Shown here: piece after piece, positions 5,955 to 41,606 of the stretch
How positions within the stretch are numbered: the stretch's first letter is position 1
How the letters are laid out: each line of letters opens with the position of its first letter
NCBI GenBank assembly: GCA_043809145.1
Contig: JAZDED010000033.1
Coordinates: 18,196-82,195 of the forward strand
DNA from: Candidatus Omnitrophota bacterium
GTDB taxonomy: Bacteria; Omnitrophota; Gorgyraeia; Gygaellales; Profunditerraquicolaceae
Direction of reading: 5' to 3'
Length of the DNA stretch: 64,000 bases
Notes under the pieces: model-generated
Database searches by the model: none
What the model was told of the DNA's origin: nothing
What the model saw: only the letters and a program-made list of their open reading frames with translations
Made by a program: the position numbers and the translations under genes

Positions 5955-8126
5955 ATGAATATTATGATTTTTTACTCCTTAAGCGGGTTATTCAGCGCGG
6001 TCATCGCTTCCGTGTTCGGCATATTCGTATTCATCAAAAAACCGCAAGGAGCAGTTAACCGCACCTACGCGGCCTTAAGCTTCTGGATTGCCTTATGGGG
6101 ATACGCCTATTTTTATTTTCCCATATCGCAAAATGATAAGGATACCGTACTTTTATCCTTCCAAATCCTACAAATAGGCGCTATTTTTATCGGCCCGGCA
6201 TTCCTGCATTTTGTCCTATCCCTTTTAAATATGCATAAAGAAAAGAGAGGGTGGGTTAACCTAGCTTATATACTGGGCATTATCTTCGCAATTTCAGACT
6301 TCACTCCGTTTTTCATAAAAAGAATGGTTCCAAAATTTGAATTTAATTACTGGGCTGAACCGGGTTTCATGTATCACTTATATCTTGTATTCTGGTCCTG
6401 GTGCATTATCTATCCCTGGAGTTTAATACTGCGCAGATACAGCCAACTATCAGAATTTAAACAGAACCAGTTAAAATATGTATTTATCGCCTCAATAATA
6501 GGCTTTCTGGGCGGAGCTACCAATTATCCTTTCTGGTACAATATAGCTATACCTCCAATAGGCACATTCCTGGTAGGAGTGCATGTGCTTATCCTAGCCT
6601 ATGCCATCATTAAATACCGCCTGATGGATATAAAAGTCACGATTACCAGAGCAGGTGTTTTCCTGGCAGTATATACCCTGGTGCTGGGCGCGCCTTTTAT
6701 CCTCTCTACATCCGGAAAATTGCTCCTGATTGAAATCCTGGGAAGAAATTGGTGGTTGGGCCCATTGGTTCTTATGGCGCTCCTGGGCACAGGAGGCCCT
6801 TTTATATACATCTTCCTCAAGAACAGCGCTGAATCATTGATATTACGCGAACAAAAAAAATGCCAGAAGGTTCTTAAAAACGCAGCTGTCGACCTGACCC
6901 GTATACGCAATATACAAAAACTGCTGGATTTTGTCTGTCAAACTATAACCGAAGCCGTGAATATAAAGAACGCGGCAATTTATTGTTTTGACGCCAAACA
7001 AAACGCCTTCATTCTGCAATCAGGAATGGACTTAAGTAAAAAACAGCCCAAATCCATACCTTGCCATAATAAACTCATTGAACTGATGCAGAAGAATAGA
7101 GACTCGCTTATCCTGGAGGAAATTATATACAACTCTCAAGAAGATAATACCTCCTGCCTAAAAAGCCTGGAAATAGAGATGCTTCAATTAGGCGCAGCCA
7201 TGGCAGTACCCTGTTTTCTAGAAGACAAACTCCTGGATGTCATCATCCTGGGCGAAAAGAAATCTGCAAAGATGTATGGGCAGGAAGATGTGGAAAATTT
7301 CAATATTCTGGCTCCGGAAGTGGCGCTAGCAACGGAAAATGCCCAGCTCTACGAAAAAATAGAAGAGGAGGTCCGCGAAAAAACCAGCGAACTAGGTGAA
7401 ACCCAGAAGCAGCTGGTACAGGCAGAAAAATTAGCCACCATCGGAACTTTGGCCGGAGGAGTAGCGCATGAAATAAATAATCCTTTAACCGCTATACTAA
7501 CCAATGTCCAGATGCTATTAGATAGCGACGAGCCGGATAAGGAATGTTTAGAAATGATTGAAGACGCCACCAAACGCTGCAAAACAATAGTCCAGAAATT
7601 AATGGCCTACGCCAAGAAACCACATGCGAATAACGAAGAGCTCGTCATGCTGGATTTACGCCAGACTACCGAGAAAACAGTCTCTTTTCTCAAATTTCAG
7701 ATGGATCAGGAAAGTATCACGCTAAATATAAAAAAAACCAAAAACGAATGCCTGATTATGGGCAATCCCAATGAATTAGAACAAGTGATAACCAATATCC
7801 TGATTAACGCAAAAGATGCTATTAAACAAATCCATAAAAGTGGTATAATTAATGTATCAGTTTACGAGCACCAGTCTTGGTCTAAAATAGAAATACAAGA
7901 CGACGGAGTGGGAATAGCAAAAGAACTGCTCCCTAGAATATTCGACCCTTTTTTTACCACTAAAGATGTGGGAAAAGGCCTGGGGTTGGGATTATCTATC
8001 TGCCAATCGATTATAGAAAAACATAGCGGCAGGATATGCGTAGATTCCGAGATTAATAAAGGCGCGAGGTTCACTATATGGCTCCCCCTGACTACAAAGG
8101 TAGACAGGAGCAGGAAAACAGTCTAA
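5955..8126 (+). CDS. sensor histidine kinase: N-terminal 7TM sensor region, GAF-like domain, HisKA, HATPase (HK1)
   Basis: About 290 aa of TM helices. H-box GGVAHEINNPL, N-box ITNILINAKDA, DDGVGI and GKGLGLGLS. Confidence 0.85.
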   Translation: MNIMIFYSLSGLFSAVIASVFGIFVFIKKPQGAVNRTYAALSFWIALWGYAYFYFPISQNDKDTVLLSFQILQIGAIFIGPAFLHFVLSLLNMHKEKRGWVNLAYILGIIFAISDFTPFFIKRMVPKFEFNYWAEPGFMYHLYLVFWSWCIIYPWSLILRRYSQLSEFKQNQLKYVFIASIIGFLGGATNYPFWYNIAIPPIGTFLVGVHVLILAYAIIKYRLMDIKVTITRAGVFLAVYTLVLGAPFILSTSGKLLLIEILGRNWWLGPLVLMALLGTGGPFIYIFLKNSAESLILREQKKCQKVLKNAAVDLTRIRNIQKLLDFVCQTITEAVNIKNAAIYCFDAKQNAFILQSGMDLSKKQPKSIPCHNKLIELMQKNRDSLILEEIIYNSQEDNTSCLKSLEIEMLQLGAAMAVPCFLEDKLLDVIILGEKKSAKMYGQEDVENFNILAPEVALATENAQLYEKIEEEVREKTSELGETQKQLVQAEKLATIGTLAGGVAHEINNPLTAILTNVQMLLDSDEPDKECLEMIEDATKRCKTIVQKLMAYAKKPHANNEELVMLDLRQTTEKTVSFLKFQMDQESITLNIKKTKNECLIMGNPNELEQVITNILINAKDAIKQIHKSGIINVSVYEHQSWSKIEIQDDGVGIAKELLPRIFDPFFTTKDVGKGLGLGLSICQSIIEKHSGRICVDSEINKGARFTIWLPLTTKVDRSRKTV

Positions 8127-35849: not shown

Positions 35850-36155
35850 CTACTCACTCTTGTACTCAAAGTTACCGCCATGGATACGAATTAGCTTACC
35901 GTTTACCAAGGCATCAGCAACGGTCTTATGACCATGTTTAAGGATCCTGCTTAAGGTCTGCTGGGATATTCCCATGGATTTGGCTGCCTCTTTTTGGCTC
36001 AATCCCTTAAAATCAACTAACCTCAATGCCTCTACCATGTCTAGGGTCAAATACGCCTCATCCGGCCTGCCAGGGCGTCCCCTAGGGCTAAATTGGCTAA
36101 TTTTACCTATATCACGGATTATCCTGGATTTCTTTGGCCTTCCCCGCGGAAACAT
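35850..36155 (-). CDS. DUF134 (UPF0251) family DNA-binding protein
   Basis: PRGRPKK, F.PRG, LTLDMVEALRLVDFKGLSQKEAAKSMGISQQTLSRIL. Confidence 0.7.
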   Translation of the reverse strand: MFPRGRPKKSRIIRDIGKISQFSPRGRPGRPDEAYLTLDMVEALRLVDFKGLSQKEAAKSMGISQQTLSRILKHGHKTVADALVNGKLIRIHGGNFEYKSE

Positions 36156-36371
36156 AATTAATTATCTTTTTACCTTGATTTACCTGGCTTTAACGCCCAA
36201 GTTATTTTGAGTACTTACTCATACTTCAGCCAAATTAATTAGGGCTCTCGTCGAGACAAAAGCCCTTATATAAATTTACTTGAGTTTACCTGTGTTTATC
36301 GTGATTATAATTATACCGCAATCAATTACAAAATCAAACATGAATTTGTTCTATATATATGTATCAATAAA

Positions 36372-36824
36372 TTATGCTTTGACCACCAAGTCTCTTCTTC
36401 TCACCCGGGATTTAACCAATATGCCGATCTCATCGCCTTTTTTAGCCTGTTGGATAGGAGAACGGTCAATCTGCATGGAGTTAATCGTCTGGTTAAAATC
36501 CGTAGTATGGCCTTTAATCCTTATGGTGTCACCTAAAACTAACGGCGCCTTGAGCTTGACCACTCCGGCCTGGACATGGGGAAAATAATGGGTTACTTCG
36601 CCGATGATGTCGGAAGCAGCTATCCCTTTGGGTAAACCTTTCTTTGCTGATACCCGCTTGGCAGAGGACTTTTTCTTGGGCTTAATTGACTTTTTCCCTG
36701 CCTGGGGTTTTTTTCTTACTACCTTTTTTGCTACTTTTTTTACTAACCTGATCTTTACGACCTTCTTTTTTACTACTTTCTTCGTTGCTGCTTTCTTAGC
36801 TTTCTTTTTTTTATTTAGAGGCAT
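36372..36824 (-). CDS. protein with a histone-H1-like Lys/Ala/Val-rich N-terminal half and a C-terminal EF-Tu-domain-II-like beta-barrel ('translation elongation factor-like')
   Basis: MPLNKKKKAKKAATKKVVKKKVVK...KPKKKSSAKRVSAKK, then IGEVTHYFPHVQAGVVKL...GDTIRIKGHTTDFNQTINSMQID...AKKGDEIGILV. AAGGAGG lies upstream. Confidence 0.6.
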   Translation of the reverse strand: MPLNKKKKAKKAATKKVVKKKVVKIRLVKKVAKKVVRKKPQAGKKSIKPKKKSSAKRVSAKKGLPKGIAASDIIGEVTHYFPHVQAGVVKLKAPLVLGDTIRIKGHTTDFNQTINSMQIDRSPIQQAKKGDEIGILVKSRVRRRDLVVKA

Positions 36825-36869
36825 TTTAAAACCTCCTTATGTTTTAGCGGTTTCTTAATGGCCGCTAAT

Positions 36870-37961
36870 TTAGCCCTTCACCTCAATCAAGGAATCTTTC
36901 TGGCCGTAGGGATTAACTGTCGTATTTGGATTATTCGGATCTTCAACCCAATCTCCGTCAACCACAAATTTGTAACGGTATCTTCCTGCCACCAGGTCAA
37001 TTTTTTTACCCCAAGAACCTTCTGCGGACTGTTCCATGCGGCTATCTTCATTGACCTTCCAATCATTAAAATCTCCCACCAGATGCACTTCTTTAGCCGC
37101 GCTATTCTTAAGCGAAAATACCATTTCGCTAAACTTAGGGATTTCTTCCTTAAGAATCTGCTTCATCTTTTTATCCAGCGCATCCATAACCTTGGCCGGA
37201 CCCTCTTCCATGGTAATAACCTCTCTGGCCAGGCTGAAATAATCTTTTGCCCCCCGGCAATATTTGTCAAATTTCCAGATATGCAAACCTTGGTTCTGGG
37301 CTTCCTTAAGTTTGACATTAACATGAATAATCGTAGAATACATCATCTTTTTAAAAGCGGACTTAATCCTATCCAGCATAATGAAGGAATGGCGCAGGCG
37401 CGAGTCGAAATTGGTAACCAGGACTTTGGAATCAACTTTATGGTCAAGCCTTTCCTTGACCAGTTCGATTATACTGGTCAACTGAGATAATCCTTCCAGG
37501 GAAAAGCGACTGGCCTCTACAGGTATAATTATCTCATCAGTTGCCCGGACTGCATTAATAGTCAGGATCCCTAAGTTTGGCGGACAGTCTATCAAAATAT
37601 AATCATAGTCAGCCTTAAAACCGCTCAAGATATCAGATAGCCGGGATTCTCTGCCAATCTCATAGGCCATCTCCTGCTCCAGGGTACTCAAAATAATGCT
37701 TGATGGCGCAATATCAAAATTTCCATCGACCTTTTGAATAATCTCGGGTAGTGCCGCGCTCTTACTGGTGAGCTTGGACAAAACATTATAGATACTTAAG
37801 TCAACCTTAATATCTAATCCTAAAGTAGCGTGCGCCTGAGGGTCCAAATCAATAAGCAATACCTTCCTGTTATTCTGCGCTAAAGTTGCAGCCAAATTCA
37901 CCGCAGTAGTGGTTTTGCCGCATCCTCCCTTTTGATTAGTAATGGAAATTATGCGCATCAA
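36870..37961 (-). CDS. Soj/ParA-type ATPase fused to a C-terminal CBM48 / AMPK-beta glycogen-binding-type domain
   Basis: [21 protein letters not shown] (deviant Walker A), [12 protein letters not shown] and [11 protein letters not shown]. The C-terminus [12 protein letters not shown]...[20 protein letters not shown] parallels AMPK-beta VYLSGSFNNW...HQYKFFVDGQWTHDPSEP. AAGGAGG lies upstream. Confidence 0.85.
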
Positions 37962-37975
37962 TTGCCTCCTTTTAA

Positions 37976-38545
37976 TTATTTTAACAACACAACGTTATCT
38001 ATATATAAAGCGCCGCTTTTATTTTCTACATTCCATTCTTCTAAAATAAATGCCAGGTTCAACATGTCTGTCCAATCGGTTATGCCCTTAAAATCATCCA
38101 TGAGTATCCGGTATGCTTTCCAGCGAAATGGTATATTCTTAAGATAGAGCTCTGACTTCTCCTTAAAGGAATTGACAAATTCAGTCCTCACAGACACATT
38201 ATCCTTAAGGTCACTCTTTCTAAATGAAACCCCTAAGTATTTGTATTTACTTAAGTTTAATCCTTTTAAATTTATGGCGTATATTTGTTTCTTACCTGGG
38301 TCAAATTTAAACCCAACCTTAACCGAATCTGACAGAAGCACATAGGTGGACTCTGTGTTTATTGGGTTACTCCGCACCTGGGCAATAGTAAAATAGAGCG
38401 ATAACGCCAATAATATAATAAGGATAAAGCTCGGATATAAATATTTGTATTTTGTTTTAGGCGGAGAGACAACTTCATTCTTTTTTTTTAACGAATTATC
38501 GAGATAAACATTTGCCAGGTGTTCGTAGATATCCTGTTTGTTCAT
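37976..38545 (-). CDS. hypothetical single-pass membrane-anchored protein, possible beta-sandwich (CBM-like) ectodomain
   Basis: TM helix [21 protein letters not shown]. The C-terminal ...[19 protein letters not shown] resembles the last strand of carbohydrate-binding beta-sandwiches (weak). Confidence 0.4.
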
Positions 38546-38594: not shown

Positions 38595-40154
38595 TCAAGC
38601 AACCAAAGGATGATGTAAATACTCCGGAACAGCTTTACCTATAAGTTTGTAAAAATTCTCTAGATGCATGCGGTATAAATAATCAAAGCTCGCTTCATTA
38701 TCTCCGTACCACCAAAACCAGTCACTGCCTTCTAAGATATACATCTGTTTCCAAGCCAAGTCTGGAATTACCTTACCCTCATCTTCCAGTTTCTTGATTT
38801 CTTTTCTTGCTGCGGCCAACCACTCCCAAGCCTTAACTTTATGGGGATTGCCGATCCATTTACCAAACTCCCCGTATATCCAGGAGCCGGCAGCCAGGCG
38901 CTTGATATTCCTTTTTTTAGCTTTGGGGTTGTTTTCAAAATATTTTTTGAGAGTTGTAGTCTTTACAAAATCCGTTTCCATTAATCTTTGATATAAAAGA
39001 TTCAGGAAATCATGCCCGTCATTAGCGTAATATTCCCAGGCATTCTCACCATCCATAGCAATTACTACCAGTATGTCCTCTTTTTTGAAAGCGGAATTAA
39101 TATTCTCTAAATGCCGCATAAAATCCGTAACTGCATCATTAGCTTTCCAGGTATGATATATAAAACCCAGCATGTCGGACAAATTCCTATCGCGGAAAAT
39201 TATATTTAACTCCCCCTCCTCTCTCTTTAATATATATGGCTGATAGAGTAACCGGGTGTCTCTTTTCTTTGCTTTTAGCGATTTAAAAAGTATAGCCTCA
39301 TCCGTAACTATCCATTTAACCTCGGATTCAATGATAAAGGGGAGAATGTGCTCACTAACCGCTTCCTCTGAAGGCCACATCCCAGTCAGGCTATCCCCAA
39401 ATCTTGCGTGGTAAAACTCTACCGCCATATCTATCTGGGCCTTAGCATCAGAAGGATAAGCGAATAATTCCTTAGGCAAGACAGTCTTATTATTGGCCTC
39501 CCGGGCAATGCGGTTATTGTAAAGTAACGGCAGTATGGGATGGTAATACGGGCTGACAGTCACCTCTACCTGTCCTTTATCCACGAATTGTTTATAACAC
39601 GGGATAATCGAATTTAATAGTTTAAGGTGCGCATCTAAAACATGGTTCTTATCATCTTCGTTAAAGAACCTGGCTTTCTGGATTATTTTTTGCAAGCCAG
39701 GATCGCTATCTCTAAAAATCGGGTCAATCCAACTTAAATTAAACCATACCACCAAGTCCAGGTAATCTTTTAACTGAAAATCCTTTCCTGCCTGTTTCAT
39801 ATAATAAAGTTCCAGGTAACGCGGATGCATATCAATTACCTTGGACCGATTAATCATAAAAAAATTATCTTTAATAAAATTCTTCTCTTGCGCATTCAAA
39901 TCCACGTTTTCTTTACGGGACAACTCCAGGAATTTATCTTTTACCTTTCCCTGGCCATAGTCTTCAATTTGTTCAACCAGAGACGGAACTAAATTAAAAG
40001 TCTGTTGGATGCCGGGATACTTTTCCAGGATCTTGACCATATCCAGATAATCCTTGGTGCCGTGCAAACGCACCCAAGGAAGGCCGGATTCCTGGGTCAG
40101 GAGGTTTTTATAATACGGCTGGTGCATATGGAATATAAAGGCGAGATTAAGCAT
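38595..40154 (-). CDS. glycoside hydrolase family 57 alpha-glucan enzyme (amylase/glucanotransferase/branching type). An alternative upstream ATG lies at 40202.
   Basis: LAFIFHMHQPYY, HGTKDY, VSPYYHPILPLL, GMWPSEEAVSE (nucleophile Glu block), IAMDGENAWEY (acid/base Asp block) and GSDWFWWYG. Confidence 0.85.
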   Translation of the reverse strand: MLNLAFIFHMHQPYYKNLLTQESGLPWVRLHGTKDYLDMVKILEKYPGIQQTFNLVPSLVEQIEDYGQGKVKDKFLELSRKENVDLNAQEKNFIKDNFFMINRSKVIDMHPRYLELYYMKQAGKDFQLKDYLDLVVWFNLSWIDPIFRDSDPGLQKIIQKARFFNEDDKNHVLDAHLKLLNSIIPCYKQFVDKGQVEVTVSPYYHPILPLLYNNRIAREANNKTVLPKELFAYPSDAKAQIDMAVEFYHARFGDSLTGMWPSEEAVSEHILPFIIESEVKWIVTDEAILFKSLKAKKRDTRLLYQPYILKREEGELNIIFRDRNLSDMLGFIYHTWKANDAVTDFMRHLENINSAFKKEDILVVIAMDGENAWEYYANDGHDFLNLLYQRLMETDFVKTTTLKKYFENNPKAKKRNIKRLAAGSWIYGEFGKWIGNPHKVKAWEWLAAARKEIKKLEDEGKVIPDLAWKQMYILEGSDWFWWYGDNEASFDYLYRMHLENFYKLIGKAVPEYLHHPLVA

Positions 40155-40234
40155 GGAATTATAATGTCGTTTGATAATGCCGACTTTTACAAAATTCGGC
40201 ATATTCGTCTTTAATTGTAAAACGCTATGGACGA

Positions 40235-40268
40235 ATAAAAAACCCCTGAGGGATTGCTCCCCCAGGGG
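40235..40268 (-). terminator. intrinsic terminator after the porin-like gene
   Basis: The minus strand reads CCCCTGGGGGAGCAATCCCTCAGGGG followed by TTTTTT. Confidence 0.55.
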
Positions 40269-40292
40269 TCATTTAATTACATAAAAGAATAC

Positions 40293-41606
40293 TTAGAACG
40301 CTACTTTCATTGAACCGATCAACTGGGTTGCGTCATTATTAGCATCCTGAAATGCTTTACCTGGTTTAAACCAACCCCAATTAAGCGCCATCTGGACATC
40401 TTCTGTGTAGTCATAGGTTGCAGATAAGTCAAGTTCCTGTCCGGCTTCTTTATCATCATTAAACATCAGGGTCTGGCCGGTATAAATATTGGTAAAGCTC
40501 GCCCTTTTGGATGTAAGATAATACAAACCTAAGTTGGCCTTAAGAGCAAGGTCATCCTTTGGTTTTAATTTGCCGTAAACATTAAAGACTGCAACGTTGG
40601 TGCCGGCAAATATGGCATTGGTGAGATCATTGGGTGCCTGGCCTTCAAACATAGGGTCCCACTCCGCGTGTGTATTATCCGTAGCTGATTGGTCACCGGA
40701 TAAATAGGTATAAGCAACTCCTACCATGGGATCCAGCTTGGTCTTGAACATGTAATCAGCCATGGCCTGTATGGCAAATGCGCGGCGCCTGGTGGCGGCA
40801 TCTGTGGCAGTAGATCTAAAAGCACCAAACTGATATGCAAATTCCAACGAAGTCATTAATTTTTCAATAGGATTAACTGCCAATAAAGCACCTATGGTGT
40901 AGAACTTCTCTTTCTTGCCTAGGCCATTCTTATCATTCTTGGCATAGAAGTAACCGTCAACAGAAGTCTTGTTATCAATAACATAATGAGCATTTAATCC
41001 AGCAACATCCACATCATCGCTAACATTCCTGGTGTTCTCTTCTGCCTTGGCATAAATCAAATCCACCATCAGGGGGTCATAGTTCAATGTTGCCCTGATC
41101 GCGTCAAACGCTTTTCTTAGGCTTAAATCATTAGGCACATTGGAAGCCTTGGTAGTAGAAAAATCGTAGTAATTTGTGCCATCAGCAATAATCAGACCTT
41201 TGCCGAAAAATATCTCCTGTCGCCCTAAGGTCAAGGTCAAAGGAGAATACAGGAACTCTTTTAAGGTAATATAGGCAAGGTCAATATCGATATTGTTGGT
41301 ATTATTGGTTGCAGTATTAACTGAATTCTGTTCACCCCAAAGACGCTCATTGATCAATCTCATGGTAGTAGAGACATTATCCGTTAAATCAGCATCCACT
41401 TTCACGCGCACCTGCGAAGAGATAAAACTTTCACGATAATCGCGCTCATTGGCAGTTGAGCCTGCCTTAAGACGAAAATCATCGCGGGAAACTCCCTGCA
41501 TCAAGATATCTCCGCCAACTTTCACATTCTGTACCTCAGCATAAGCATTAAAGAATAATCCCACTACAAATGCCAGGGTCAAGGTTAATATTAATCGCTT
41601 ATTCAT
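40293..41606 (-). CDS. outer-membrane beta-barrel (porin-like) protein
   Basis: Signal peptide ...FFNAYA. Alternating amphipathic beta-strand pattern, many aromatic girdle residues and C-terminal ...MKVAF. Confidence 0.6.
   Translation of the reverse strand: MNKRLILTLTLAFVVGLFFNAYAEVQNVKVGGDILMQGVSRDDFRLKAGSTANERDYRESFISSQVRVKVDADLTDNVSTTMRLINERLWGEQNSVNTATNNTNNIDIDLAYITLKEFLYSPLTLTLGRQEIFFGKGLIIADGTNYYDFSTTKASNVPNDLSLRKAFDAIRATLNYDPLMVDLIYAKAEENTRNVSDDVDVAGLNAHYVIDNKTSVDGYFYAKNDKNGLGKKEKFYTIGALLAVNPIEKLMTSLEFAYQFGAFRSTATDAATRRRAFAIQAMADYMFKTKLDPMVGVAYTYLSGDQSATDNTHAEWDPMFEGQAPNDLTNAIFAGTNVAVFNVYGKLKPKDDLALKANLGLYYLTSKRASFTNIYTGQTLMFNDDKEAGQELDLSATYDYTEDVQMALNWGWFKPGKAFQDANNDATQLIGSMKVAF

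Follow-up and report, generated by a model that had tools for sequence, protein, structure and literature searches.

The minus strand of the window, by which we mean the whole stretch of 64,000 nucleotides of Candidatus Omnitrophota DNA analysed here, encodes a 150-aa protein (36372..36824; ATG start, stop codon included) in which a lysine-dominated tail precedes a small beta-barrel. Its gene lies directly 3' of the gene for a ParA/Soj-type ATPase that carries a C-terminal glycogen-binding module (ParA-CBM48), and this almost constant place suggests that the barrel protein probably belongs, as an accessory component, to a positioning system not described before. The reading we prefer, and hold tentatively, is that of a dedicated accessory subunit of the Omnitrophota ParA-CBM48 module, in which the tail would tether and the barrel would dock.

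The product is 100% identical to the NCBI entry "hypothetical protein ABIG46_08905" from a Candidatus Omnitrophota MAG, and a sequence search found 578 homologues. A Shine-Dalgarno sequence, AAGGAGG, can be read 7 nt 5' of the ATG (36832..36838, minus strand), and 45 nt separate the ParA-CBM48 stop from this ATG. About 105 nt past the barrel-gene stop, a consensus scan located a terminator-like hairpin (36241..36266, minus strand; a pattern match only), which is likely the end of the transcription unit. The short gap, the strong Shine-Dalgarno sequence and the hairpin 3' of the barrel gene form an operon-like arrangement in the window. A phenylalanine-rich ORF on the plus strand (36604-36858) is the mirror of the lysine codons and was rejected as a gene, since homology, the Shine-Dalgarno sequence and synteny all back the minus strand.

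The tail (residues 1-66; 36627..36824, minus strand) starts with MPLNKKKK and contains 28 K, 3 R, 9 V, 7 A and 4 P, with no D or E. Given the window background of 8.3% K, the probability of at least 28 lysines in 66 residues is 8e-14, and the best 40 residues of the protein hold 21 K+R, against at most 13 in any other real ORF of the window. AF2 assigns the tail a pLDDT of about 50 and no secondary structure, so that it is predicted to be disordered. Tail and barrel are both kept in 116 of the 120 homologues listed, which identifies the tail as a selected feature and not an artefact of A-rich DNA. Across these 116 sequences it has a median length of 51 aa (family range about 35-70 aa), 52% K+R and a median of 0 acidic residues; the composition is K 42%, A 13%, V 8.5%, R 8.4%, P 8.2% and acidic residues near zero, and it is this composition that is conserved in the family, not the sequence. 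The N-terminus follows the pattern M-[PA]-x-K-K-K-K, lysine occurring at positions 4-7 in 86-111 of the 116 sequences (K4 in 111), far above the expectation from tail composition. In main-clade tails, V, I and L are scattered between the lysines. A composition-conserved, acid-free tail is what would be expected of a non-specific polyanion binder. For polycationic tails in general, anionic membranes, RNA and polyphosphate are no less suitable binding partners than DNA. Tail composition resembles that of the chlamydial Hc2/HctB and Burkholderia NF038053 proteins, which differ in lacking the barrel; the corresponding model matches are composition-driven and far below threshold (HC2, PF07382, 15.9 bits against a cut-off of 40; NF038053, 18.7 bits against 80). 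TRF found only weak repeats in the tail DNA (12-nt x2.9 and 15-nt x1.9), which rules out an AlgP-like repeat protein.

The barrel (residues 67-150; 36375..36626, minus strand) is of the translation-protein/U32 C-terminal type, as indicated by alignment, AF2 (pLDDT 95-98) and Foldseek. The closest structures are those of the U32 C-terminal domain (4he6/4he5), with a target-normalised TM score of 0.87-0.91, an rmsd of 1.0-1.9 Å and 18% identity, followed by domain II of EF-Tu, mtEF-Tu and IF2 at a probability of 1.00 (E about 1e-5 to 1e-3 for EF-Tu domain II). The predicted fold, a closed barrel of six to seven strands that superposes on EF-Tu domain II, is the same in all of these, and a G-D-x-x-G turn is shared. 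Composition, AF2 and Foldseek thus bear out the initial annotation, which had described a lysine-dominated N-terminus on an EF-Tu-domain-II-like barrel. Pfam matches remain under their gathering thresholds, both for PF03144 GTP_EFTU_D2 (15.5 bits, E 0.024; threshold 30.3 bits) and for PF16325 Peptidase_U32_C (13.4 bits, E 0.087; threshold 28.2 bits). Matches of the full protein in Pfam, NCBIfam and PDB sequences are likewise sub-threshold and partly composition-driven, and were not used for family assignment. Unlike in U32 proteases and translation factors, the barrel stands alone or behind a polycationic tail. No U32 catalytic domain precedes it in the 150-aa protein, where only the K/R tail does, and there is no GTPase domain; both identities are therefore ruled out. 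The invariant motifs in the family alignment are KKGDEIG and, as features of its own, THYFP, GHTTDF, SMQID and SRVR.

The tail+barrel family has no Pfam model, a few relatives have a precomputed PF16325 hit, and some members carry the NCBI name "translation elongation factor-like protein". The barrel family as a whole comprises 2157 representatives of 50%-identity clusters, most of them with K/R-rich tails, and is annotated as "hypothetical", "putative protease" or "translation elongation factor-like"; a cluster look-up of distant relatives returned almost no names. Barrels of relatives occur stand-alone, in tandem or fused to TIR domains, and behave there as a portable binding module. These distant TIR fusions are the sole hint of defence: neither the tail+barrel protein nor the membrane protein described below matched a PADLOC family (0 matches), and a defence system at the Omnitrophota locus was ruled out.

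The neighbouring ATPase (36870..37961, minus strand; 363 aa) combines an AAA_31 domain (9.7e-55) with a CBM48/AMPK-beta-type module (AMPK1_CBM 4.9e-12, CBM_48 2.4e-6). The claim that the barrel gene directly follows a ParA-CBM48 gene holds with regard to both the gap and the domains of the neighbour. Its best PDB match is the M. xanthus ParA structure 8RAY (3.9e-53), and the hydrophobic partner-binding pocket mapped in that ParA is retained (L130/G131/I132/I135/L167/L172). Three of the four residues of the nsDNA patch are kept (R188, K200, K217) and V214 is lost, while the sugar-binding positions FNDW, YKF and DGDW of the CBM48 are all retained. A MinD-type C-terminal membrane helix is absent. 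These features give ParA-CBM48 the look of a functional ParA of the nucleoid type that carries a module for binding alpha-glucan.

The arrangement of the two genes recurs across genomes. Searched from the barrel side, ParA-CBM48 lies 5' of the barrel gene in all loci (36/36); searched from the ParA side, the barrel gene lies 3' of ParA-CBM48 in 36 of 38 loci at 49-70% ParA identity, being absent from that position in two Omnitrophota loci. Co-occurrence across genomes had been named beforehand as a check, and these counts show that the gene is indeed co-conserved with ParA-CBM48. The linkage outlasts the local gain and loss of a GH57 gene and of an intervening DUF4870-like gene. The strict synteny spans one large Omnitrophota lineage; near more distant ParA-CBM48 genes (at most 47% identity), no barrel protein was found. 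The barrel is about 66-76% identical family-wide, the ATPase 62-70% and the membrane protein 39-52%. Such conservation, similar to that of the ATPase and above that of the membrane protein, fits a specific interaction surface.

The conserved cluster, which lies on the minus strand, begins with an Alginate_exp-family outer-membrane beta-barrel (40293..41606; Pfam 4.7e-28, synteny), after which the consensus scan placed a terminator-like hairpin (40241-40270). It continues with a GH57 alpha-glucan enzyme without an evident signal peptide (38595..40202; Pfam Glyco_hydro_57 4.3e-61, synteny), which the main clade of the cluster has and the deep clade lacks. The third gene encodes a 189-aa bitopic membrane protein (37976..38545), defined by alignments, AF2 (pLDDT 83), Foldseek and synteny, which consists of an invariant N-terminal helix (IYEHLAxIYLD), a poly-K linker, a TM helix and a CBM11/30/28/16-like beta-jelly-roll. 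In the large Omnitrophota lineage with strict synteny, this TM protein is always 5' of ParA-CBM48. It also accompanies ParA-CBM48 in lineages without the barrel protein, and the IYEHLAxIYLD-type motif is common to the TM proteins adjoining distant-type ParA-CBM48 genes. On the other side of the barrel gene, a DUF134 HTH protein (35850..36155, minus strand; Pfam DUF134 3e-25) is a frequent 3' neighbour in many loci; its gene is probably a separate transcription unit, and a promoter-like site was found at 36304-36337 by consensus scan.

The core of the proposed module would consist of the AlgE-like outer-membrane barrel, the membrane-anchored CBM-like protein, ParA-CBM48 and the barrel protein, joined in many members by GH57. 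The tail would attach electrostatically, without specificity, to a polyanionic surface. The likeliest such surface is nucleoid DNA, judging from the H1-like tails of PhaM (C. necator), PhaF (P. putida) and AlgP (P. aeruginosa). Specific docking, either to ParA-CBM48 or to something on its alpha-glucan cargo, would fall to the highly conserved 80-aa barrel. In this way, the protein might hold or gather the complex of ATPase and cargo on the nucleoid, or tune the ATPase cycle there. A precedent exists in the H1-like tails through which granules of PHB and polyP are positioned at the nucleoid (PMC13052382). PhaM, PhaF and AlgP likewise combine a Lys/Ala/Pro-rich, acid-free, disordered tail with a separate binding part and associate with a storage polymer, here represented by the alpha-glucan context of CBM48 and GH57; the same non-specific DNA tethering is, for the barrel protein, a proposal from analogy. 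However, their tails are C-terminal with regular AAKP/PAKKA repeats, whereas that of the barrel protein is N-terminal and weakly repetitive, and their folded part is a phasin or PhaC-binding region instead of an EF-Tu-D2/U32-C barrel. None of them is encoded with a ParA ATPase (PMC13052382), unlike the barrel protein. We infer every binding partner and every activity in the accessory-subunit model from what was observed directly, namely the architecture, predicted fold, conservation, synteny, ParA pocket, most of the DNA patch and the CBM48 sugar residues. Several observations argue against the model. The ready binding of polycationic tails to partners other than DNA and the possible membrane-targeting helix of deep-clade members are two of them. 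ParA-CBM48 keeps most of its own nsDNA patch and may thus not need a separate DNA tether. The more distant ParA-CBM48 genes manage without the barrel protein, whose gene is also missing from its usual position in two Omnitrophota loci. In Margulisiibacteriota, proteins with a K-rich tail and the barrel occur without ParA nearby, in the context of polyamine genes and a YgiQ radical SAM gene, so that a ParA-independent core function is possible.

The barrel protein had also been proposed to be the ATPase-activating partner of ParA-CBM48, of the McdB, ParB or ParG type. Its basic N-terminal peptide would then stimulate hydrolysis at the interface of the ATP dimer, while the barrel would hold cargo or oligomerise. 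This is an unlikely explanation, although part of the idea stands. The position directly 3' of the ATPase gene, the strict co-conservation and the retained partner pocket all agree with it, as do the lysines at positions 4-7, conserved beyond composition, and a basic N-terminus is characteristic of ParA/MinD ATPase partners (PMC12139897, PMC11407121). Like the ParB peptide, ParG, McdB, MinE and PomX, the protein is also small, partly disordered and encoded beside a putative ATPase. What failed is the search for the ParB motif, on whose hydrophobic residues the binding of ParB to ParA depends (PMC12462528). N-termini of the main clade, that of the window protein included, are not amphipathic (z = -0.5 vs shuffles), and the ParB-type hydrophobic and basic spacing occurs in 1 of 60 sequences, with 1.3 expected by chance. 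Only among the deep-clade homologues, which open with an amphipathic helix, is the spacing phi-x-[KR]-x-phi-x-x-phi-phi enriched (8/16 sequences against 1.25 expected). Moreover, activating peptides known so far measure about 20 aa, and a 35-70-aa tail with 50% K/R greatly exceeds them in both length and density. Its length, density and composition agree better with the alternative from the initial annotation, an H1-like protein that binds polyanions or tethers to the nucleoid, than with a ParA-activating peptide. The protein differs from ParB in lacking a ParB/Srx CTPase domain and an HTH (no match in Pfam or NCBIfam), and from ParG in lacking the RHH fold. It has neither the central coiled-coil of type 1 McdB nor the invariant C-terminal Trp of type 2, ending in ..VVKA or ..VYKV. 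A further departure from known ParA/MinD partner systems is that the putative cargo-binding domain, CBM48, sits on the ATPase itself. The cluster also holds a second, better conserved candidate partner in the TM protein, whose invariant N-terminal helix and wider co-occurrence with ParA-CBM48 make it the stronger candidate; the activating peptide proper is more likely this helix than the tail of the barrel protein. The absence of a link in the distant ParA-CBM48 and Margulisiibacteriota cases also speaks against activation by the tail, and an activating-peptide role of the window protein is weakly supported.

It is rather improbable that the protein is a peripheral membrane adaptor, with the polybasic tail, and in the deep clade the amphipathic helix, binding anionic phospholipids. 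The barrel, and hence ParA-CBM48, would then be put at the inner membrane beside the TM-CBM-like protein and the outer-membrane barrel, and the remaining conserved partners are indeed envelope proteins. The deep-clade helices contain aromatics and reach a mean muH of 0.63; examples such as MSFLKKISDVIKEVFWIK and MAILRKVIRVLKKIFFGKK resemble the membrane-targeting sequences of MinD, FtsA and MinE and could have that function. Even the main-clade tails have V/I/L among their lysines, but they lack amphipathic periodicity, and the ATPase retains the greater part of the Soj DNA patch and has no MinD-type membrane helix.

Quite unlikely, too, is a general H1-like protein associated with the nucleoid or with RNA and ribosomes, acting independently of ParA-CBM48, for which the gene order would reflect only inherited co-location or co-expression. 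The large barrel family, mostly K/R-tailed, does occur in contexts unrelated to ParA, such as those of Margulisiibacteriota and, elsewhere, LarA/GlnA, and the HC2 and H1-like composition matches point the same way. The fold is that of domain II of EF-Tu and IF2, which contacts tRNA and the ribosome. However, the gene order persists over a wide range of ParA identity despite local indels, and no translation or nucleoid genes were found to recur near the Omnitrophota loci.

Least of all is the tail expected to bind another polyanion, such as polyphosphate or a phosphorylated glucan, and so to link a granule of that kind to the ParA system, since glycogen is essentially uncharged and no polyP-metabolism genes were found in the cluster. 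In its favour speaks the case of AlgP, likewise H1-like and associated with granules of polyP (PMC13052382), whereas the locus itself yielded nothing specific for it.

Polysaccharide cargo is absent from recent reviews on how ParA/MinD systems position their cargo and on how organelles are organised, and literature searches on ParA with CBM48 or glycogen, on McdA with glycogen granules and on Omnitrophota glycogen with ParA found nothing relevant. The accessory-subunit reading touches on a question raised in one review, namely whether H1-tail tethers such as PhaM, PhaF and AlgP work with an ATPase not yet known (PMC13052382). Here, one operon encodes both kinds of component, a ParA ATPase and a protein with an H1-like tail, side by side. 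Since the parts are short and easily expressed (150 aa for the protein, 363 aa for the ATPase and 20 aa for the peptides), the question could be addressed directly, both in vitro and with E. coli as host. The large, Pfam-less barrel family gains a genomic context. Omnitrophota are an uncultivated phylum with very small cells. It is conceivable, if doubtful, that their cluster is the first polysaccharide-granule system of the ParA/MinD family, in which ParA-CBM48 would grip alpha-glucan granules and ride the nucleoid, the helix of the TM protein would activate it and the barrel protein would be an H1-like nucleoid adaptor. If so, one operon would merge two ways of positioning organelles that have so far been seen separately, active movement by a ParA ratchet driven by ATP and passive tethering by an H1-like tail, and the barrel would represent a new kind of docking domain, widespread and portable, which also occurs in fusions with TIR effectors.

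The K-tail barrel protein is encoded by a 150-aa open reading frame (ORF) on the minus strand (36372–36824). Its ATG lies 45 nt past the stop codon of the preceding gene, ParA-CBM48 (36870–37961, minus strand), with a Shine–Dalgarno sequence, AAGGAGG, 7 nt upstream, and a terminator-like hairpin (36241–36266) follows the gene. An identical NCBI entry, from a Candidatus Omnitrophota MAG, is named "hypothetical protein". Its tail, residues 1–66, comprises 28 Lys, 3 Arg, 9 Val, 7 Ala and 4 Pro and is devoid of Asp and Glu. Against a background of 8.3% Lys, the mean of the window's long ORFs, this Lys excess has a P of 8e-14, and no other real ORF of the window contains a comparable Lys/Arg tract. 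The F-rich plus-strand ORF opposite is not a gene, being the mere complement of the Lys codons. The Lys-coding 5' third (36714–36812, minus strand) harbours five A runs (A8, A6, A7, A6 and A7), at which transcriptional or translational slippage could occur.

A query with the barrel only retrieved 578 proteins, nearly all of 115–151 aa. Among the 120 listed members, 116 carry an N-terminal tail of 34–70 aa (median 51), with 38–60% K+R (median 52%) and a median of zero acidic residues. The composition of the tail is kept (K 42%, A 13%, V 8.5%, R 8.4%, P 8.2%) but its sequence is not, apart from the start M-[PA]-x-K-K-K-K, with K4 present in 111 of the 116. The barrel is 66–76% identical across the family and has invariant THYFP, GHTTDF, SMQID, KKGDEIG and SRVR motifs. 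Pfam assigns nothing to family members save occasional weak D2 or U32_C matches. When 1.84 billion cluster representatives were searched exhaustively, 2157 clusters proved to be related to the barrel, 672 with E<=1e-10; most of the best 150 have a K/R-rich N-terminus, and the other architectures among them are stand-alone barrels (83–89 aa), tandem barrels and TIR_2 with two barrels. In the distant relatives P0134 and P0155, where TIR_2 is fused to two tandem barrel copies, PADLOC reports TIR-effector matches, which suggests that defence-like proteins can use the barrel for sensing or binding; PADLOC matches neither the window's barrel protein nor its membrane protein.

Profile matches to the window protein were all sub-threshold: GTP_EFTU_D2 (15.5 bits vs a threshold of 30.3), Peptidase_U32_C (13.4 vs 28.2), and, through composition, HC2 and a Burkholderia H1-like model. 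AlphaFold2, given a 32-sequence alignment, predicts that the N-terminus is disordered (pLDDT ~50) and that residues ~70–150 fold into a beta-barrel (pLDDT 95–98). The top Foldseek match of this barrel in the PDB is the C-terminal domain of the Geobacillus U32 peptidase (4he6/4he5; TM 0.87–0.91 on the target, rmsd 1.0–1.9 A), followed by many domain II structures of EF-Tu, mtEF-Tu and IF2. Because of this predicted barrel and its matches, the description in the initial annotation, a Lys-rich tail on an EF-Tu-domain-II-like barrel, is right.

Three homologue look-ups on long contigs revealed a common gene order: an Alginate_exp outer-membrane barrel, GH57, a membrane protein of ~188 aa, ParA-CBM48, an optional DUF4870/MamF_MmsF-like gene, the K-tail barrel gene, one or two ORFs of ~60 aa, and DUF134. 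The window follows this order without the optional small genes. The ParA side was surveyed with one genome per GTDB species, using the 80 best of 593 confirmed ParA-CBM48 matches. In the near group (42 loci, ParA 49–70% identical, mostly labelled Omnitrophota with some Planctomycetales/Planctomycetia), the membrane protein is encoded upstream in 42/42 loci and the barrel gene downstream in 36 of the 38 that extend far enough on that side; it is genuinely absent there from L032 and L043. The barrel side was surveyed on metagenome contigs (80 loci), and in all 36 with >=1.8 kb upstream, ParA-CBM48 immediately precedes the barrel gene; shorter contigs that reach far enough contain the 3' end of ParA-CBM48. 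The linkage persists in a deeper clade that has lost GH57 (L036–L049, L062), and it holds whether or not a DUF4870-like gene intervenes. Within the lineage, co-conservation with ParA-CBM48, the lack of which would have told against the earlier proposal of a ParA-activating partner or nucleoid tether, is thus clear from both sides. The 38 distant-group loci (ParA <=47% identical; other Omnitrophota, Myxococcota, "delta proteobacteria", Eisenbacteria, Margulisiibacteriota, Spirochaetes) all lack a barrel gene beside ParA-CBM48, and no neighbour in them is K/R-rich; one of these loci, L055, has a barrel fragment at its end, ~6 kb off and on the other strand.

The Alginate_exp gene (40293–41606, minus strand), first in the cluster, is co-conserved even in the GH57-less deep clade of Omnitrophota, the barrel proteins of which have tails of ~50–150 aa. 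The DUF4870/MamF_MmsF/Tic20-like membrane protein of ~103–107 aa follows ParA-CBM48 in many related loci (L007:5667–5978, L001:5663–5983, L043:7106–7417) and is absent from the window. The conserved ~60-aa ORFs (L007:6422–6607 and 6604–6789, L004:6529–6915), one with a weak Rho_N (SAP/HeH-like) match (E 0.006), are missing from the window's 217-nt spacer, and the window likewise lacks a 23S_rRNA_IVP/bAvd-like four-helix-bundle gene that some related loci have between porin and GH57 (L001:1939–2310, L004:1841–2197). The frequent downstream neighbour DUF134 (35850–36155, minus strand), an HTH protein and possible regulator, has a promoter-like site (36304–36337) that is seemingly its own.

Known bacterial H1-like tails anchor granules on the nucleoid: those of PhaM and PhaF hold PHB granules there, and that of AlgP holds polyphosphate granules (PMC13052382, PMC3556143). 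The barrel-protein tail agrees with these tails in length, charge density and composition. The functions of the barrel protein and of the module are inferred throughout, and the favoured reading, held tentatively, is that the barrel protein serves the ParA-CBM48 module as an accessory subunit: its conserved barrel would dock specifically on ParA-CBM48 or on the cargo of that ATPase, and its tail would bind a polyanionic surface, of which the nucleoid is the likeliest.

The ATPase domain is nearest to chromosomal ParA/Soj (M. xanthus ParA 8RAY, E 3.9e-53; T. thermophilus Soj, 3e-36). The AMPK beta CBM can be aligned with the C-terminal module, in which the FNNW, YKF and DGxW positions are kept; in the AMPK beta1–cyclodextrin structure these positions carry W100, K126 and W133. 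Of the M. xanthus residues defined as the ParB-binding pocket by Schnabel, Osorio-Valeriano et al. (PMC12462528), L150/G151/L152/L155/L187/L192 map to L130/G131/I132/I135/L167/L172, and V116 to Q96. Three of the four basic residues of the non-specific DNA patch of Soj (TtSoj R182/R194/R208/R211; PMC6393308) are kept (R188, K200, K217) and one is lost (V214). From the pocket, DNA-patch and sugar positions that are kept, ParA-CBM48 looks like a functional ParA, probably nucleoid-binding, suited to a helical partner peptide and able to hold alpha-glucan itself. The fusion is widespread: tblastn confirmed 593 stretches among the species representatives of GTDB, and the records that gave the 80 best (L010–L089) bear the labels Omnitrophota, Myxococcota, "delta proteobacteria", Thermodesulfobacteriota, Eisenbacteria, Margulisiibacteriota, Spirochaetaceae and Planctomycetes. 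An ORF family of ~280–330 aa found 3' of several distant-type ParA-CBM48 genes (L057:4476–5462, L061:7131–8048, L064:3339–4277, L085:6024–6875) looks, from an example read by eye, like a second P-loop (MinD/FlhG-like) ATPase.

That the barrel protein activates the ATPase, as first proposed, seems unlikely. ParB binds ParA through four hydrophobic residues around a central R/K on a short N-terminal helix (PMC12462528), and other ParA/MinD partners also use basic N-termini (PMC11407121, PMC12139897). Main-clade proteins, the window's own among them, show no amphipathicity over their first 24 residues (mean muH 0.39, z = -0.5 vs shuffles), and in this clade phi-x-[KR]-x-phi-x-x-phi-phi occurs in 1/60 proteins vs 1.3 expected. 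Deep-clade proteins possess a clear amphipathic N-terminal helix, e.g. MSFLKKISDVIKEVFWIK and MAILRKVIRVLKKIFFGKK (mean muH 0.63), with the motif in 8/16 vs 1.25 expected; this aromatic-containing helix resembles the membrane-targeting sequences of MinD/MinE/FtsA and matches the ParB motif spacing. A role as a polybasic membrane adaptor is rated lower still. Alignments and AlphaFold2 (pLDDT 83) indicate that the bitopic membrane protein (189 aa; 37976–38545, minus strand) has an N-terminal helix (3–16), a TM helix (36–58) and a beta-jelly roll (67–188) resembling CBM11, CBM30, CBM28, CBM16 and CIA30. The N-terminal IYEHLAxIYLD segment hardly varies, and a poly-Lys linker comes after it. Membrane proteins of 240–300 aa upstream of nine distant-type ParA-CBM48 genes, in loci without the barrel protein, share the E-x-L-A-x-x-Y-[FL] motif with it and have a comparable C-terminal domain. 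Because of this near-invariant helix and the motif shared with barrel-less loci, the membrane protein is the more general ParA-CBM48 companion and a stronger candidate than the barrel protein to supply the peptide that fills the pocket.

An independent nucleoid- or RNA-binding protein, merely co-located with ParA-CBM48, is about as improbable as the membrane adaptor, given the linkage within the lineage; relatives away from ParA speak in its favour. Margulisiibacteriota have a clade with K-rich tail, barrel and a C-terminal extension (L170:5001–5564, L172:5001–5567; conserved end ..KKF[FL]x[F]) terminating in ..KFLSF or ..KFFRF. Upstream in these two loci lie polyamine-biosynthesis genes (Sacchrp_dh, Orn/DAP/Arg decarboxylase) of the carboxy(nor)spermidine dehydrogenase/decarboxylase type and a YgiQ-type radical SAM gene, with no ParA nearby; Margulisiibacteriota ParA-CBM48 does exist elsewhere (L084). 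Short-tailed and stand-alone barrel genes adjoin LarA/GlnA or acetolactate decarboxylase. Judging from these ParA-free contexts, the tail–barrel unit predates its association with ParA, and the barrel is a portable module, not a "ParA-partner domain" as such. Binding of the tail to another polyanion is highly improbable.

Polysaccharide is absent from the ParA/MinD ATPase cargoes in two recent reviews (PMC11407121, PMC13052382), and targeted literature searches found no published description of ParA-CBM48 or the barrel family. The parts (ParA, CBMs, H1-like tail, translation-type barrel) are recognisable; their combination appears undescribed. Within it, the membrane protein is likely the true ATPase partner, and the barrel protein would be a lineage-specific third component.
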